Shown here in pieces: positions 1 to 52,425 of a stretch of DNA of 64,000 nt. Numbering within the stretch: position 1 is the first letter of the stretch; each line of letters opens with the position of its first letter. The stretch comes from an uncultured Gammaproteobacteria bacterium (GTDB lineage Bacteria > Patescibacteriota > Patescibacteriia > UBA11705): assembly GCA_964592195.1 (NCBI GenBank), contig CAZQEI010000005.1, positions 5,689 to 69,688 on the forward strand. The letters run 5' to 3'. A program made the translations under genes and the position numbers. Under the pieces are notes generated by a model. The model did no database searches. It was given only the letters and a program-made list of their open reading frames with translations, and had not been told where the DNA came from.

Positions 1-157
1 ACGAGCTTCATCAGAAAAAACTGAAAGATATGAATTCAATTCATTATTATTATTTTCAATGCGATCCAAATAGTGCATAACCAATTCCTGACATGAAAAG
101 TCTTTATTTTTCAATCCTTCTTGCACTTCTGTTATGGAAAGTTTATTTAAATTCATA
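1..157 (-). CDS. gatA: Glu-tRNA(Gln) amidotransferase subunit A, N-terminal fragment (gene continues past window start)
   Basis: Minus-strand translation from ATG at 155-157 gives MNLNKLSITEVQEGLKNKDFSCQELVMHYLDRIENNNNELNSYLSVFSDEAR, typical of a GatA N-terminus. It abuts the gatC stop, as in gatCAB operons. Confidence 0.55.
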
Positions 158-448
158 CTATTTATGTTTTAAAACTGATTTAACGCGCACCTGACCATCT
201 TCCACGTCTGGCGCGGCCGCTAACACTTCCTCGGCTGAATAAATCAAGTGGGACTCATCCGGCCGCGTAATGTTTTCTTGGCCAGTGATGTGATCCATGG
301 CTGGGATAGTGCTTAAGTCAACCTCGTTAAGTTGATTCATATACGTCAAAATCGACGACAGCTGGGTCGCAAATTTCTTTTTTTCTTCTTCAGTTAAATC
401 TAGCTTGGATAGTTTAGCTAGGTGGTCAATCTGTTTAAGTGAAAGCAT
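158..448 (-). CDS. gatC: Asp-tRNA(Asn)/Glu-tRNA(Gln) amidotransferase subunit C
   Basis: 96 aa with a GatC-like pattern (LAKLSKLDLTEEEKKKF...LNEVD...HITGQENITRPDE) and a position directly upstream of gatA. Confidence 0.8.
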   Translation of the reverse strand: MLSLKQIDHLAKLSKLDLTEEEKKKFATQLSSILTYMNQLNEVDLSTIPAMDHITGQENITRPDESHLIYSAEEVLAAAPDVEDGQVRVKSVLKHK

Positions 449-471
449 ATAAGCATTTTAACAAGGTAGTT

Positions 472-594
472 CCCTCTTCTGCGAGCCCCGAAAGTATTGA
501 GGGGCGTGGCAGTCTCAATTGAACTGTTACTTGTATATAATAAATTTTAAAGAGATTGCTTCGTCTCCCCGATTAAATCGGTGATCCTCGCAAA
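472..594. repeat. Composite intergenic repeat family R1, copy a: module tcctcttctgcgagCCCCG...GGGGcgtggcagtctc plus module agagattgcNcgtcNcCCCGATTAAATCGGNgaNcctcgcaaa
   Basis: Near-identical modules recur at 20897-21036, 35531-35660 and 47620-47663. They contain the palindrome cccgattaaatcggg and nested hairpins. Confidence 0.6.
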
Positions 595-732
595 TGAGGT
601 TACTATTTTACTTGCCTGCACAGACAGGAGTAGCTTCCGTCGTGTCATCCGACACGACTGGCATGTCGAATGACATGCCGTAGTTCAGAATTAATTCAAT
701 CTATTCTATCCGTAGAATCCGTAGCCTTGTAA

Positions 733-1047
733 CTAAATCGCAACCCCATATAATCCTGCGATAATCGATGTAATCCTACGGGCTTCGTTCTCCACCAACT
801 CACCCTCATACTCCCCCGAATGCGCAGTCGAACCTTCATAGGAAACTTCTTTTTGGTCAATATGAATGCTGAAATCAAAATGGTCTTCAAACTTTTTAAT
901 ATAAACGTGGAAGCGTGGATAATGACCACTTCCCAGTGAACGCTTATAACTGGTTTCTTTGGTGTGAAAGCTGGTAATTTCACCATAACCACACCGACGA
1001 ATCAAATCTTCCGGGTTATATTCTTTGTATGGAAAACTAAAGTTCAT
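733..1047 (-). CDS. hypothetical protein (104 aa)
   Basis: An ORF with no recognisable motif. The overlapping ORF 696-992 in another frame is probably spurious. Confidence 0.3.
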   Translation of the reverse strand: MNFSFPYKEYNPEDLIRRCGYGEITSFHTKETSYKRSLGSGHYPRFHVYIKKFEDHFDFSIHIDQKEVSYEGSTAHSGEYEGELVENEARRITSIIAGLYGVAI

Positions 1048-45090: not shown

Positions 45091-45750
45091 CTATTTGCCA
45101 TGGATAATAACAACGAACTCGCCTTTACTTTGCTTTTCCAGTTCCGGAATGATAGTTTCTAACGTACCGCGATAGGTAGTTTCAAATTTTTTCGTTAACT
45201 CACGACAGACAACGATTTGACGAGTCGGTTCTAAATATTTTTGCATTTCTGTTAAAGTTTTAATAATGCGATGGGTGGACTCATAGAAACAGGTGGTGCA
45301 ATCAGAATCGCGAATGGTTTCAAAGTTTTTTGTTTTGCCCTTGTGGGGCATGAAACCTAAAAATAAAAATCTGTCTGTTGGAAAACCGGAAATACTCAAA
45401 GCGGAAATCACTGCGCAAGCGCCGGGAATGGTTATTACCTGCCAACCTAATTTCACTGCAGACTCAACCACGCGACCACCGGGATCGGAAATACCTGGAG
45501 TGCCGGCATCGGAGACATAAGCAACATTAGAATACAAATCTAATAACTGCTCAATATTCTCAATCTCAGTATGTTGATGAATGGTCACCAACTTATTTTT
45601 AAACTCAAAATGCGCCAAAAGCTTAGAAGTTTGGCGGGTATCTTCGCAAAAAATCACCTCCACGGATTTTAAGGTTTCCAATGCGCGAGGGGTTAAATCG
45701 CCAAGGTTACCAATAGGTGTGGCGACGATGAATAATTGTTTTTCGGTCAT
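45091..45750 (-). CDS. rsmI: 16S rRNA (cytidine1402-2'-O)-methyltransferase
   Basis: LFIVATPIGNLGDLTPRALETLKSVEVIFCEDTR tetrapyrrole-methylase-fold signature. The likely start MTEKQ is at 45748-45750. Confidence 0.85.
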   Translation of the reverse strand: MTEKQLFIVATPIGNLGDLTPRALETLKSVEVIFCEDTRQTSKLLAHFEFKNKLVTIHQHTEIENIEQLLDLYSNVAYVSDAGTPGISDPGGRVVESAVKLGWQVITIPGACAVISALSISGFPTDRFLFLGFMPHKGKTKNFETIRDSDCTTCFYESTHRIIKTLTEMQKYLEPTRQIVVCRELTKKFETTYRGTLETIIPELEKQSKGEFVVIIHGK

Positions 45751-45916
45751 ATGGATGTCTACCCTTCGAGGCTCCTGTTTCACAGGAGGCACCTCAGGGT
45801 GACATTTAAAGTATATTTTAATGTTGTAATTATATCAAATGTATAAAATATAAGCAATTTTCAGCTAATTTTCGTGTTTTTTGATCAATGATCAATGGTC
45901 AATGTTACATGACCAC

Positions 45917-45945
45917 TTGACAAACTTTAAACTATGTGCTATAAT
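45917..45945 (+). promoter_or_regulatory. Consensus sigma70-type promoter TTGACA-17-TATAAT
   Basis: ttgaca (45917-45922), a 17-nt spacer, tataat (45940-45945). It lies directly upstream of the GC-rich non-coding island on the plus strand. Confidence 0.6.
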
Positions 45946-45951
45946 GCTTAG

Positions 45952-47508
45952 TTACATGATCGTTTACAATCAATAGCTCTCGTAGAGTCTTTTGACTCCG
46001 AGATGTCTATAACCAACTCCAAGCCCCCACCGAACTATGCACATTGGAGGTGCCGCAGGAATGCGATCGGGGGCAGATGCAGGGTGGACATGCCAAAGTA
46101 TAGGCTCGTAACAAAAACCGCGAGGAGAGAAGCGGTTTGAGCTGAAGCTGTGGACAACCCCACCCTAATTCGTCAAAACTCTCGCTCGAGCCACAAGGTT
46201 CGCGAGATAATTGACTGCTCCTCGTCAGATGAGCCGCAACCAACGGGACTCATGGCGAGGCACGCGCACGTATCTTGGTATGGAGTAAGCACCGCGGTTG
46301 ACCCTGCTGGTAACAGGGTGGTATATAACCGGCGGAAGCGCTACATAGTACAAGAGGTGCGGTGAAATCGAGCCCGATTCGTCGGGATTTCGATACGAGC
46401 TCCTGGAGCCCCCACCCAACAACACACCTGGAGGTGGCGCGTAATGCGTTTGGGGGCAGACAGCGGGTGAGACAGACTTGTCTCGACCAATTGACTACTC
46501 AAAGAAGTGAAAGATCCTCGACGAGAAAGTCTCACCCAAAGTCGTCGATTTCTCTACCGCAAGGTGGAGATCGAAGATACGCTGACTCGGACGATCGCGG
46601 TCCTGTGGCCCTCCCGCCCCTCTGCTGGTGGCAGAGATGGACAATCGTTCGAGCGTACCCCGGCCCTAAGCTCGGCTAACCCTGCGCCTCGCGGTGCACG
46701 GTCAAGCAGCTTCCGTGGCAGTCCTCACGAGGCTCGTTCGGTCGCTCGCTGGAGTCCTCTTCAGGATAAACCAGCCCGCCGCGACTGCGCCCCAGACTTC
46801 CGTCTGTCGGGGCTTACGCCTGTGGGGTTCGCACGCCACGCGAGGTGTCCGGGGATGCGAAGTTGATCGTTCTGCGAAAGTGGAACGTCGACATAGATCA
46901 CCACGCAACTCTCCCAGCAAATCCAGGGAGACTACCCGCCTTGAGTCTTTTGGGCCACGTGTGGACGAGTTAAATCGTCCTGTACAAGCCTCAGTTCGAA
47001 ACTGGCTCTAAGGCGGGCACGAAATTGACCACTCTTCGGAGTGTGTTGATACAGATCATCCGAGGGCTCGCAGCTCACACCCACTCGATGTGGGAGTCAG
47101 CTCTGAGCTCGTCAACGTGAGCACCAACGTCACTGGCGGTTCTTATCCGTCCAGAATCTGGTCAGCCTGAAGTACAAGGGCTGGTTGGAGGAGGGGTTCA
47201 CGGTGATGTCCATGGTGTCCGAACAATCGGACTGACCATATCAGAACGCCACCCATCGTCGCATGCGCAACGATTCATCGAACTCGGACATCCGAGACAC
47301 AGCATGACGCGACGATCGGGCGTTGATCCCCAGTTCACATCTGGTTCAGGCCGCAAACAAAAGCGACTGACCGATAAGCTGGGGACACGAATTCAGCCTT
47401 TGCTGATGGACAAGATGACTTCGGTCGTCGCGTTCTCGCAAAGTGTTGATAGATCTCAAGCTCCGACGTTGAACACCTCACGGTGAACAACGTCGGAGCA
47501 CTTTTTTT
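45952..47508 (+). ncRNA. Candidate large (about 1.55 kb) GC-rich structured non-coding RNA of unknown class, or a non-coding foreign insertion
   Basis: There is an abrupt shift to GC-rich sequence with no frame free of stops. The short ORFs are Arg/Pro/Ser-rich in all six frames. It is bounded by a consensus promoter and an intrinsic terminator, and carries an internal ~65-nt repeat (46024-46090 and 46409-46476). Confidence 0.45.
47461..47508 (+). terminator. Rho-independent terminator
   Basis: An 11-bp stem ctccgacgttg/caacgtcggag with an inner sub-hairpin cacc-tcac-ggtg, followed by cacTTTTTTTaTTT. Confidence 0.7.
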
Positions 47509-47619
47509 ATTTGGTAAGTTGGCCTGCCTGCGTAAGGCAGGTAATTGGTAAAAAAGTAAATTGGTACATGGAATATTAAAAAAACGAGCAAAATGCTCGA
47601 ATTTTTATTATTATTTTAT

Positions 47620-47663
47620 TAGAGATTGCCACGTCGTCCCGATTAATCGGGACTCCTCGCAAA
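47620..47663. repeat. Intergenic repeat family R1, copy d (core module only)
   Basis: agagattgccacgtcgtcccgattaatcgggactcctcgcaaa. Confidence 0.6.
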
Positions 47664-47674
47664 ATAGGGATTAA

Positions 47675-48166
47675 CTATTCCCCGACTTTCGTAACTTCCC
47701 ATCGTTCACCATTCCAGATATAACAATCATTTATTTTCTTAAAAAAATCTTGACATTGTCCATCACCTGAGCCGATCAAACCACCACTGGCATTACAAAG
47801 CTTTTGTCCATCATCTTTATAAACAATATCAGTGTAACAATCTTCACAATTTGGTTGTCCGCCAAGACTAAGATATACAGTTGCTCCGGAATAATTGCAA
47901 CGGAAGTCTGGAATTAAATAATTCTCCACAGTTGAATCAGCTTGCATGATTTTCAACCAATCTGGTAAAGCATTATTATTGACAGCTGTTTCGTTTCCAT
48001 TCACGGACGAAGAACCTCCGCTAGTTAAATCAGTGATTGATTTTTTCAAAGCTTCCACTTCCGCTTTTTTTTGTTTGGCTTGATTCACCAAATCCTCACC
48101 TTTTTGCCAATCCGAGTTGGCCTCATTCTTATATTTATCAACTTCAGTTGTAATATTATTCCACAA
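47675..48166 (-). CDS. hypothetical Cys-rich protein (163 aa)
   Basis: 8 Cys in the C-terminal half (CNYSG...CEDC...CNASG...CQDFFKKINDC). It may be the C-terminal part of a gene split from 48212-48397. Confidence 0.3.
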   Translation of the reverse strand: MWNNITTEVDKYKNEANSDWQKGEDLVNQAKQKKAEVEALKKSITDLTSGGSSSVNGNETAVNNNALPDWLKIMQADSTVENYLIPDFRCNYSGATVYLSLGGQPNCEDCYTDIVYKDDGQKLCNASGGLIGSGDGQCQDFFKKINDCYIWNGERWEVTKVGE

Positions 48167-48211
48167 GCCGCCTATCTTTCCCCAATCGCCGGCAAACTGT
48201 CCATTGATATT

Positions 48212-48397
48212 TTAGAAAAAGAAAAACGCGAAAAACACTATGACGCAAAAAAACAACAGACCAAAACCAAATTTTTTAGATTTATGGCGGTAAGAATTAT
48301 TTTCTTCCTCGAAAGACTCATCATCCTCCACCGAACGATTAAAACGTCGATGTTGTTCCAAAGTGTCACGATATTGTCGTTCTTCTTCTGAAAGCAT
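48212..48397 (-). CDS. small protein with a C-terminal hydrophobic segment (61 aa). It may be the N-terminal fragment of a split gene
   Basis: It ends in FGFGLLFFCVIVFFAFFFF immediately before a stop. The next ORF continues 46 nt downstream. Confidence 0.25.
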   Translation of the reverse strand: MLSEEERQYRDTLEQHRRFNRSVEDDESFEEENNSYRHKSKKFGFGLLFFCVIVFFAFFFF

Positions 48398-51065: not shown

Positions 51066-51881
51066 TTATTTGATTAAATAAATAACGCCTACGATTATTA
51101 ATGCCAAGACTATTCTATACCAAGCAAATACTGACAAAGAATTCTTTTGTAAAAACTTTAAAAACCCTTTAATCACCAAATATCCCAACCAGAACGTTAA
51201 AACAATACTAAACAATAAAATAAACATCTCTCTATTATTCAATAACATCAAATTAACTTCAAATAACTGTTTAACGCCGGCTAATAGAACTACAGGAATA
51301 CTTAATAAGAATGAAAATCGAGCCGCCTCCTCGCGCTTCAAATTTATCGCCATACCTGCTACAATAGTAGCACCGGAACGGGAAACGCCAGGAATTAACG
51401 CCAATGCTTGCGCCAAACCGATCAAACAAGCTTCTGGAATGGATAAACTTTCGTAGATAATTCGTCGTTTGGAGTATCTCTCCACAATTAAAATTACCAC
51501 GCCACCGACGAACAACGCAATGGCCACTGTCCACAGGTTACGAAAATATTTCTCAATCCAATTTTCCGCCAACAAACCGACAATGACGGCTGGAATAGTT
51601 CCCAGGATAATATTCACCACAGTGCGCTGATCATCATGGGTAAAGTTAACACCTTTGCGCATAGACCAGAAGGCTTTCCAATAGCGACTTATATCCTGAC
51701 GAAAATATACTATTAACGCCAAAGCCGTCCCCAAATGCAAGGCGGTGTCAAAAGCCAAGTTGTCTAAAATTTCAAAACTAACGAATTGATGTAATAAAAC
51801 CAAATGTCCAGAACTTGATATCGGCCAGAACTCAGTTAGAGCTTGAACAATGGAAAAAATTAGAGCTTGAAATAGTTGCAT
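51066..51881 (-). CDS. uppP: undecaprenyl-diphosphatase
   Basis: TEFWPISSSGHL signature and an 8-TM layout. Confidence 0.85.
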   Translation of the reverse strand: MQLFQALIFSIVQALTEFWPISSSGHLVLLHQFVSFEILDNLAFDTALHLGTALALIVYFRQDISRYWKAFWSMRKGVNFTHDDQRTVVNIILGTIPAVIVGLLAENWIEKYFRNLWTVAIALFVGGVVILIVERYSKRRIIYESLSIPEACLIGLAQALALIPGVSRSGATIVAGMAINLKREEAARFSFLLSIPVVLLAGVKQLFEVNLMLLNNREMFILLFSIVLTFWLGYLVIKGFLKFLQKNSLSVFAWYRIVLALIIVGVIYLIK

Positions 51882-51996
51882 ATGCAGTCATTGATCATTG
51901 AACAATGAACATTGATCAACGAAATATTTAAATAATTTATTACTCTTTTCACTTATCTCGCTTATCTCGCTTTCTTGCTTATAAGCTAAAAACTAT

Positions 51997-52425
51997 ATGT
52001 ATCACTTAATCATCATCCCGATCGCAGCGGCGATCATTGCTCAGCTCATTAAACTTATCATTGACGCCAAGAATAAACAATTTTCATGGACAGATTTGAA
52101 TGGTTATGGCGGTATGCCATCTTCTCACACGGCCATGGTGACCAGTTTAGTCGCCAGTATTGGTTACTTTGACGGCATCACAACTTCGGCTTTTGCTGTC
52201 AGTTTAGTTTTAGCCGTTTTAATCATTCGCGACGCGGCTGGATATAGACGACAAATAGGACTGCATGCTAAAATCTTGAATAAACATTTGGAACAATTAC
52301 CAGCTGAACAAAACTTTCAATTTCCTCATTTGCGCGAACGGCTTGGGCATACACCACTAGAAGTGCTCGGCGGGTTAACGGTGGGACTGGTGGTAACGGC
52401 GGTGTATATTATTTTATTTATATAG
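51997..52425 (+). CDS. divergent PAP2 family (DUF212) membrane protein
   Basis: GGMPSSHTAMV and a later HTPLEV. This is one of only two plus-strand features in the window. Confidence 0.65.
   Translation: MYHLIIIPIAAAIIAQLIKLIIDAKNKQFSWTDLNGYGGMPSSHTAMVTSLVASIGYFDGITTSAFAVSLVLAVLIIRDAAGYRRQIGLHAKILNKHLEQLPAEQNFQFPHLRERLGHTPLEVLGGLTVGLVVTAVYIILFI

Follow-up and report, generated by a model that had tools for sequence, protein, structure and literature searches.

A GC-rich candidate RNA gene of about 1.56 kb divergent from rsmI in a Patescibacteria genome

A GC-rich island between rsmI and a DUF6970 gene

The window analyzed here, a 64-kb stretch (64,000 nucleotides [nt]) of contig CAZQEI010000005.1, carries between rsmI and a gene for a DUF6970-type membrane protein a GC-rich island that we consider a likely gene for a large structured RNA. 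The genome is 37% G+C, and elsewhere in the window no 1-kb interval exceeds 0.46 G+C, with most at 0.33 to 0.41 and averages per kb outside the island of 0.32 to 0.43; across the island the G+C fraction per 200 nt rises from 0.28 (45800-45999) to 0.54 to 0.66 (46000-47499) and falls back to 0.365 (47500-47699). Both composition edges (∼45,950 and 47,510) coincide with a predicted sigma-70 promoter and an intrinsic terminator, and these and the other features of the locus are listed in Table 1. The sequence TTGACA-17-TATAAT occurs without mismatches only once in the window on either strand, and one further site appears when a single mismatch is allowed. A promoter and terminator scan finds no further plus-strand promoter or terminator within the island, and a single transcript of ∼1.56 kb is therefore predicted. 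A first-pass annotation of the sequence had described much of this, and its observations stand: the abrupt switch from AT-rich to GC-rich sequence beyond rsmI, the perfect promoter, the terminator stem with its U7 tract (the stem measures 12+4 bp), the second hairpin after the terminator, the hairpin at 45985, and a duplicated element of ∼65 nt that extends to a second helix are all present.

The island has no discernible protein-coding character. Its longest open reading frame (ORF) is 119 amino acids (aa) from a start codon and 123 codons from stop to stop, a length reached by 59% of shuffles, and its codon-position composition is flat (chi2 p = 0.9), compared with p = 2e-20 for metG and p = 7e-5 for rsmI. 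The ten longest island ORFs (table 11) have no Pfam match, the 119-aa ORF has no match in 5.8 billion protein clusters, and tblastn of all island ORF fragments against the syntenic islands, including that of the homologous locus L001 described below, gives only noise. With UGA read as sense (codes 4 and 25), frame +1 has 2 stops and a 314-codon open stretch that is significant against mononucleotide shuffles (p = 0.007) but not against dinucleotide shuffles (p = 0.17). This spurious frame arises because UA dinucleotides are depleted in the RNA, with an observed/expected ratio of 0.59 in 45946-47512 versus 0.71 in the rest of the window; the depletion is seen likewise in L001 (0.66) and L003 (0.50). 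The UGA-sense translation is Arg/Ser/Pro-rich, several tested ORFs in that frame belong to no Pfam family, and the genes flanking the island read through cleanly with table 11. A protein-coding gene, standard or UGA-recoded, was thus rejected, being without a significant ORF, periodicity, or protein homologues. The first-pass annotation had noted that all frames are broken and had listed a coding reading under an alternative genetic code among the outcomes that would refute a noncoding call; the longest ORF is typical of shuffles, and reading UGA as sense rescues no coding frame.

Known RNA families do not account for the island. A search of the whole window with Rfam 15 (4227 models) at gathering score identifies one tRNA only, outside the island, and cmscan of 45700-47800 at E <= 10 yields nothing meaningful, its three matches with E > 0.4 being outside the island or miRNA noise. 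There is no match to small- or large-subunit rRNA (SSU/LSU) covariance models at gathering score or at E <= 10, as would be expected of 16S or 23S rRNA or a fragment, and RNase P RNA, tmRNA, SRP RNA, and 6S RNA are without Rfam matches. The OLE, GOLLD, ROOL, HEARO, and raiA families are included in Rfam, and none is matched. Group I and group II introns have no match at E <= 10, no island ORF has a Pfam domain, and the island is intergenic with its own promoter. ARAGORN predicts 0 tRNA or tmRNA genes, permuted forms included, in 45800-47700 and in six syntenic loci; the sequence GCCCCC-ACC...GGGGGC resembles a permuted acceptor stem but lacks a G3-U70 pair. The earlier reading by eye, which saw no universal rRNA blocks and no signatures of RNase P, tmRNA, group I or II introns, OLE, GOLLD, or ROOL, is borne out by these Rfam and ARAGORN results, and the Rfam scan assigns the island to no family.

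Other candidates were rejected on their motifs and repeats. A sponge of the CsrB/RsmZ type is disfavored, since the ANGGA motif is not enriched (4 versus 7.5 expected); GGA occurs 29 times versus 31.5 expected, and no GGA recurs in predicted loops. A ToxI-like type III toxin-antitoxin RNA and CRISPR-like arrays are excluded by the lack of tandem repeats in the island (Tandem Repeats Finder [TRF]); the repeats are two dispersed copies, and there is no same-strand protein gene. UAUGG and CCUAAG, sought as parts of a GNRA tetraloop receptor, are present, with flanks that are noncomplementary by eye. The island matched none of the 50,697 phage and 72,556 plasmid records searched with blastn in distant mode.

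Table 1. Predicted and annotated features at and around the GC-rich island (positions in the window)
Feature	Position	Strand	Description
rsmI	45091-45750	-	Flank of island
Tandem heptads TCAATGN	45882-45911	+	3-4 copies abutting the -35 box; TRF period 7, 3.3 copies
Sigma-70 promoter	45917-45945	+	TTGACA-17-TATAAT, score 12/12; extended -10 TG at 45937-38 (TGCTATAAT)
Predicted transcript	45952-47508	+	∼1.56 kb, 56% G+C; start placed from the -10 box, end at the U7 tract
Conserved 5' motif	45958-45969	+	GATCGTTTACAA; predicted pairing with GATC at 47452-47455, just 5' of the terminator
5' hairpin	45973-46010	+	Core gagtcttttgactc at 45985-45998; -15.6 kcal/mol, z = -2.6 for 45950-46012
Module A, copy 1	46010-46182	+	P1 GCCCCC (46023-28)/GGGGGC (46069-74), enclosing GGAGGTG and ATG
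GAGGTG-ATG unit 1	46047-46111	+	8-nt spacing, ATG 46061; 16-codon mini-ORF MRSGADAGWTCQSIGS; within module A copy 1
Hairpin H	46172-46214	+	Two helices, 2-nt bulge, ACAA loop; covariance model R1, 55.9 bits; -20.2 kcal/mol, z = -4.1
Module A, copy 2	46395-46552	+	P1 and P2 as in copy 1; P2 insert unrelated
GAGGTG-ATG unit 2	46431-46470	+	7-nt spacing, ATG 46444; 8-codon mini-ORF MRLGADSG; within module A copy 2
GAGGTG-ATG unit 3	46842-46866	+	GAGGTG-N7-ATGCG, ATG 46855; 3-codon ORF MRS
Intrinsic terminator	47460-47508	+	Hairpin 47460-47499, 12+4 bp stem, -29.2 kcal/mol, z = -8.3; U7 at 47502-47508
Second GC hairpin	47522-47542	+	3' of the terminator (GCCTGCCTGCGTAAGGCAGGT); -15.2 kcal/mol, z = -3.9
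Bidirectional terminator-like hairpin	47585-47599		Serves the convergent DUF6970 gene
DUF6970 gene	47675-48397	-	Other flank, convergent with the RNA gene

Folding, internal modules, and a homologous locus

The predicted transcript folds more stably than expected from its composition. Minimum free energy (MFE) was compared with that of dinucleotide shuffles in seven overlapping 400-nt sense windows, and it lies below the shuffles on the transcribed strand in all seven (z = -4.9, -3.5, -2.9, -3.1, -5.0, -2.9, and -7.6), compared with a mean of -0.51 (standard deviation 0.82, range +1.0 to -1.97) for twenty 400-nt coding controls from the same 64 kb; the L001, L003, and L007 units behave alike. 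In the MFE model there are 28 hairpins, among whose loops are UUCG (three times), GCAA, and GAAA, and GNRA or UUCG loops closed by at least 3 bp are found 8 times versus 3.3 expected (p = 0.025). No loop motif is repeated among the predicted loops. The model also pairs the 5' motif with the segment preceding the terminator, with 4 bp in the window RNA and 9 bp in the L001 RNA, and this predicted pairing of the two ends in both RNAs is weak evidence that hints at a closed overall architecture.

Two kinds of module are repeated. Module A is present in two full copies whose core duplicates (46014-46090 and 46399-46470) are ∼78% identical, and a search along self-diagonals for a periodic repeat of ∼385 to 400 nt shows only this duplication standing out. 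In copy 1, a second helix, P2, is formed by GGGTGG (46082-87) and CCACCC (46160-65) around a variable insert. Both copies retain P1 as GCCCCC/GGGGGC and P2 as GGGUGR/YCACCC, with one P2 pair compensated from G-C to A-U, and the 60- to 70-nt insert within P2 is fully replaced between them; structured RNAs show such a combination of conserved core and free periphery. The second module, hairpin H, has one copy in the window RNA and three in L001, the third of the L001 copies being a diverged one that was found (E ∼1e-4) with a covariance model built from the other three. In the alignment of the four copies, paired cells make up 97.7% and compensatory double changes are seen at 4 of 11 pairs, a result reached by 8 of 500 shuffles, and control alignments in which the hairpin is slid or shifted collapse. 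These compensatory changes are suggestive, coming from a small sample and an alignment fitted to the model.

The homologous locus L001 was found through RsmI. The relatives of RsmI that carry names are from Falkowbacteria and Parcubacteria metagenome-assembled genomes, placing the window in Patescibacteria, with a Falkowbacteria-like host, and the closest RsmI among 5.8 billion clusters is P0002, which is 74% identical. L001, from a groundwater sample (JGI 3300024054), is the 4.3-kb metagenomic contig coding for P0002, with the order translin, DUF6970-type membrane protein, GC-rich gap, rsmI, and metG. The gap is ∼1.04 kb with 50 to 62% G+C versus 34 to 48% in its flanks and contains, at L001 2382..1338 (minus strand), a unit on the strand divergent from rsmI with a TTGACA-N14-TGCTATAAT promoter and its own terminator. 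The 5' motif is shared as GATCGTTnACAA, with a spacing to the -10 box equal to that in the window RNA, and the 5' ends of the two RNAs align over 53 nt at 70% identity (E = 3e-4). The rest of the two RNAs is unalignable (local score z = 1.9), with the rsmI genes being 71% identical at the DNA level, and both RNAs keep 54 to 56% G+C.

Searches for additional homologues gave no second example. An RsmI-anchored scan of genome contigs recovered 9 loci, none of the window/L001 type, and among the contigs from nine look-ups of RsmI relatives only L001 is homologous; two look-ups of the window's own RsmI yielded no record. Scanning metagenomes with the pattern TGCTATAATN{11,13}GATCGTTNACAA returned the L001 contig together with five chance matches in unrelated contexts, and two scans of viral contigs with module patterns gave one chance match, in a phage coding region of 64% G+C.

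The rsmI-divergent site, its mini-ORFs, and the neighboring genes

Loci retrieved with RsmI as the anchor reveal a variable hotspot in this lineage on the divergent side of rsmI. In other Falkowbacteria it is occupied by GC-enriched units with a consensus promoter (mostly TGCTATAAT), without a long ORF, and with a terminator where the contig covers the end of the unit. The TTGACA...TGCTATAAT promoter is common to L001, L003, L007, and L030, and L002 has TTGACG...TGCTATAAT. The units vary in size and number: 0.63 kb in L003 (identical to L005), which also has three small promoter/terminator units, 0.5 kb in L007, two units in L002, 0.26 kb in L014/L015, 0.46 and 0.74 kb in L021/L020, and 0.57 kb in L030; the units of L008 and L031 run off the ends of their contigs. 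In blastn comparisons, none of the units compared had primary sequence in common with the window RNA, and a search of seven syntenic loci with Rfam at gathering score gave nothing relevant; the Rfam scan of syntenic units covered L001, L002, L003, L007, and L008. Six loci (L006, L009, L010, L011, L017, and L019) have protein genes at this site instead, and some Falkowbacteria carry a methyltransferase and Ham1 there. The three small units of L003 (5943..5470, minus strand; identical in L004/L005) are each ∼70 to 120 nt and lie between rsmI and the 0.63-kb RNA; two of them are paralogous (80% identity over 44 nt), and none matches Rfam.

The window RNA contains units in which a Shine-Dalgarno (SD) sequence precedes a start codon. 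GAGGTG-N7-8-ATGCG is found three times versus 0.00 expected in 1000 dinucleotide shuffles, and GAGGTG-N7-8-ATG three times versus 0.04 expected, with the SD-to-start spacing looked for in a dual-function RNA; a further mini-ORF of this SD-AUG kind, with 9 codons, starts at 47206. Across all of the syntenic RNAs an SD core followed by ATG at 3 to 10 nt occurs 16 times versus 2.8 expected, with zero on the antisense strand, and nearly every syntenic RNA examined has an SD and a start codon within its first 30 to 130 nt. In the window RNA the peptides themselves are not conserved. The ORF of module A copy 2 stops at codon 9, nucleotide conservation runs on beyond it and is equally high upstream of the SD, and the paralogous mini-ORFs differ by a premature stop and nonsynonymous changes. 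Conservation past the stop and in the non-ORF flanks indicates that what is conserved is the RNA module rather than the peptide; module A may still serve for binding 30S subunits.

The strongest SD+ATG signal is in the mini-ORFs of L021 and L002, which repeatedly code for a peptide of the form M[RK][RK]x[FY]x[TS]G[FY]x-stop; between paralogues the changes are synonymous or conservative, together with an in-frame indel of 3 nt. The window peptides (MRSGADAGWTCQSIGS, MRLGADSG, and MRS) have no resemblance to this family. L021 (1292..830 and 780..40, minus strand), L002 (5755..5470), and L007 (4882..4385) have arrays of a strong SD (AAGGAGGT), a start codon, and an ORF of 5 to 15 codons that mostly ends in TAG, with peptides such as MKRRYATGFQ, MRKRFPTGYV, MRKTFFPSGFA, MRRTQPFKFL, MRYTAGFL, MYTTGFA, and MRKRL. 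Several of these begin with a +X+ motif, as in the ErmDL and MRLR arrest peptides. Here the conserved ACCGGUU could alternatively be a strand of an RNA helix.

Several features around the island deserve note. The TCAATGN heptads abutting the -35 box are a candidate binding site, or shared operator, for a regulator. The heptad array is present again at 51889-51915 (minus strand; 4 matches versus 0.01 expected), where bacA/uppP (51066-51881) and a DUF212/PAP2 gene (51997-52425) diverge from the intergenic region that separates them; the L001 RNA has no such array upstream. About 58 of the 63 ORFs of at least 120 aa in the window are on the minus strand. The predicted RNA gene and the DUF212 gene at 51997 are rare plus-strand units, so that transcription of the RNA would run opposite to most of the genes. 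The DUF6970 gene codes for a membrane-anchored protein of 240 codons with one in-frame TAA (48212-48214) that divides it into ORFs of 61 and 163 aa. Its L001 homologue (259 aa) aligns across the TAA and has Gln at that position, and the stop could mark a pseudogene or nonsense mutation, be a sequencing error, or be a site of read-through. The database protein for rsmI, P0001, has 233 aa from a GTG start at 45792; most of the relatives listed have 212 to 230 aa, fitting the ATG at 45750. The additional 14 codons of P0001 overlap an inverted repeat, CTCCTGT-TTC-ACAGGAG (45772-45788), which more likely belongs to the 5' untranslated region of rsmI.

A probable lineage-restricted structured RNA and its alternatives

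The undescribed large structured RNA put forward in the first-pass annotation is supported by the gene-like edges of the island, its lack of coding signal, its excess folding, and the corresponding unit in L001. We regard it as likely that the island is a genuine structured RNA gene, and our verdict is that this gene is lineage-restricted and fast-evolving. The explanation that we favor, held as a whole with moderate confidence, is a stand-alone RNA gene coding for a trans-acting, modular riboregulator that engages ribosomes or a protein. The transcript would accumulate as a stable RNA of ∼28 hairpins, with its 5' end paired to the segment immediately before the terminator, and would have grown by internal duplication of structured modules, namely, module A (in two or three copies) and hairpin H. 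Selection would act on structure, stability, and a few modules and not on primary sequence. As an abundant modular RNA it would act in trans: its repeated modules, each of which would display an SD-like GAGGUG followed after 7 to 8 nt by an AUG amid partial base pairing, might engage either 30S subunits or ribosomes, through the tiny ORFs, or a protein partner. Such an RNA would be a large riboregulator of the dual-function or decoy type, with a logic like that of RNAIII-type RNAs and unlike that of a catalytic housekeeping RNA. The ribosome-engaging mechanism in particular is tentative, and we rate it as possible but on the unlikely side.

Several observations weigh against this explanation. 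Transcription and the transcript ends are read from a predicted promoter and terminator. L001 is the only homologue, with the genome, metagenome, viral, and protein-database routes giving no other, and because there is one homologue in the searchable data, covariation is limited to four copies of one 44-nt module in a model-fitted alignment. Between these two genomes the RNA is not conserved outside the hairpin module and the 5' end, and no conserved 'ornate' global architecture is supported; sequence turnover this fast is atypical of an RNA that conserves an intricate fold. Folding energies of the antisense strand are below those of its shuffles too (z = -0.4 to -5.5), as helices would lead one to expect, but on average less so. 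As to the SD-like units, two of the three in the window RNA are derived by duplication and, lying in the duplicated module, are not independent; the SD and AUG in module A are partly base-paired; L001 has one SD+ATG unit, which is not above chance; and generic SD cores in the window RNA are not enriched (10 versus 7.8 expected).

A micro-coding transcript is an appreciable but minority alternative. In this case tiny peptides would be made from the SD-AUG mini-ORFs (16, 8, 3, and 9 codons, starting at 46061, 46444, 46855, and 47206), and the GC-rich structured body would mainly stabilize the mRNA or regulate its translation. The three GAGGTG-N7-8-ATGCG units in the window RNA, the enrichment of SD+ATG in the syntenic RNAs with none antisense, the SD and start near the 5' end of nearly all of those examined, and the recurring L021/L002 peptide with its synonymous and conservative changes are all in keeping with this. 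However, the window peptides are unlike the L021/L002 family, the early stop in copy 2 is followed by nucleotide conservation, and the mini-ORFs make up <8% of the transcript, leaving 1.5 kb of GC-rich structure unexplained.

We give somewhat less credence to a role purely as a protein-binding scaffold or sponge, or to an assembly of RNA alone as in OLE, GOLLD, or ROOL, with the SD-like motifs as incidental parts of helices. The large size and GC-richness of the window RNA, its many GNRA- or UUCG-capped hairpins, and its repeated modules are in keeping with this, and GAGGUG belongs to the sequence flanking hairpin H on its 3' side (CGAGGUGUC), both in L001 and at 46838-46847, making a structural explanation of the motif possible. 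Nevertheless, there is no repeated loop motif and no excess of ANGGA, no gene for a partner protein is linked to it, homology to OLE, GOLLD, or ROOL is lacking, and the window RNA has few invariant nucleotides, unlike known ornate RNAs.

A broader interpretation, which we consider doubtful, is that in Falkowbacteria-like Patescibacteria the rsmI-divergent site is a hotspot for an undescribed class of fast-evolving, strongly expressed, GC-rich, and highly structured RNAs that capture or stall ribosomes. Their common denominator would be embedded SD-start mini-ORFs, many beginning Met-Arg/Lys, with the window RNA as the largest member, and they would be translation-sensing or ribosome-sponging RNAs that do not work through a conserved fold. 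RsmI itself is the methyltransferase for 16S C1402, in the ribosomal P site.

It is improbable that the island is nonfunctional or selfish DNA, either a horizontally acquired GC-rich fragment or decaying hotspot content behind a strong promoter; in the second case only the promoter or the act of transcription would matter. The hotspot nature of the site, with its unrelated RNAs or protein genes, and the barely conserved primary sequence are consistent with this, but GC-richness has been kept in two AT-rich lineages whose rsmI genes are 71% identical in DNA, such that neutral sites are necessarily saturated, and this argues for selection on the RNA and not for a recent foreign insert. The edges fall exactly at a promoter and a terminator, and not at repeats or an integrase, which also speaks against recent insertion. 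The excess structure runs over the full length, the compensated hairpin module is shared with L001, and neither phage nor plasmid records show similarity to the island. The first-pass annotation had offered a horizontally acquired noncoding fragment as its alternative, to be judged by analysis of the GC-skew boundary; that alternative is disfavored both by where the composition boundaries lie and by the GC-rich unit at the same site in L001. Finally, a protein gene hidden by UGA as a sense codon or by assembly frameshifts is effectively refuted by the coding analyses above.

Among known systems, OLE and ROOL are ∼600 nt, GOLLD is ∼800 nt, and the RNAIII of Staphylococcus aureus is 514 nt and encodes delta-haemolysin. 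OLE, GOLLD, ROOL, and raiA are large 'ornate' bacterial noncoding RNAs (ncRNAs) whose functions are at best partly known, belonging to the GC-rich-intergenic-region class of the Breaker laboratory (PMC11109978, PMC12286853). Like these, the window RNA would be a stand-alone, noncoding gene of hundreds of nucleotides or more, GC-richer than its AT-rich host, with many hairpins, several of them GNRA or UUCG capped, and its own promoter and terminator; unlike them, it is about twice the length of the largest, is in Patescibacteria with a very narrow distribution, and shares almost no invariant nucleotides with L001. We rate it as a new family within the known general kind of large GC-rich ncRNA. 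From its sequence the window RNA would also resemble RNAIII in being long, multi-hairpin, and lineage-specific, with a ribosome-binding site and a small ORF in a structured body, and strong expression as in RNAIII would be expected to apply; in contrast, there is no homology, the window RNA is three times longer, and its ORFs have 3 to 16 codons with peptides that are unconserved in the window.

Leader mini-ORFs with drug-sensing or regulatory roles, of which ErmDL (MTHSMRLR...) and the minimal arrest peptide MRLR are examples (PMC8298421), offer another comparison. As in these leaders, there is a strong SD, a start, and a very short Met-Arg ORF inside a potentially switchable RNA structure, and L021 and L007 mini-ORFs start with MRKR or MKRR (+X+), recalling ErmDL and MRLR. 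However, the window ORFs start with MRS or MRL-G and are without the +X+ motif, each transcript would hold several units, and no same-strand regulated gene lies downstream, because the unit ends at its own terminator. With multi-site sponge RNAs of the CsrB/RsmZ type the window RNA shares repeated structured modules, purine-rich SD-like motifs, and rapid sequence turnover, possibly with function conserved; it differs in having neither ANGGA enrichment nor a consistent loop motif, and nothing in the window points to CsrA.

To our knowledge, bacterial ncRNAs longer than ∼500 nt are very rare, rRNA and mobile introns apart, and OLE, GOLLD, and ROOL each opened new biology. Our literature searches found no described large RNA of this sort in candidate-phyla-radiation bacteria, and a 1.56-kb ncRNA, if true, would be among the largest in bacteria and, within the literature searched, the first for the candidate phyla radiation. 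In genomes this tiny, 1.5 kb of noncoding DNA that follows the strongest promoter of the 64 kb is probably not idle. The gene keeps its position, promoter, GC-richness, and structure while its sequence is nearly free to change, which raises the question of what RNA function tolerates such turnover, and the conserved Arg/Lys-rich mini-ORFs at the same site in several relatives provide a testable link to ribosome engagement.

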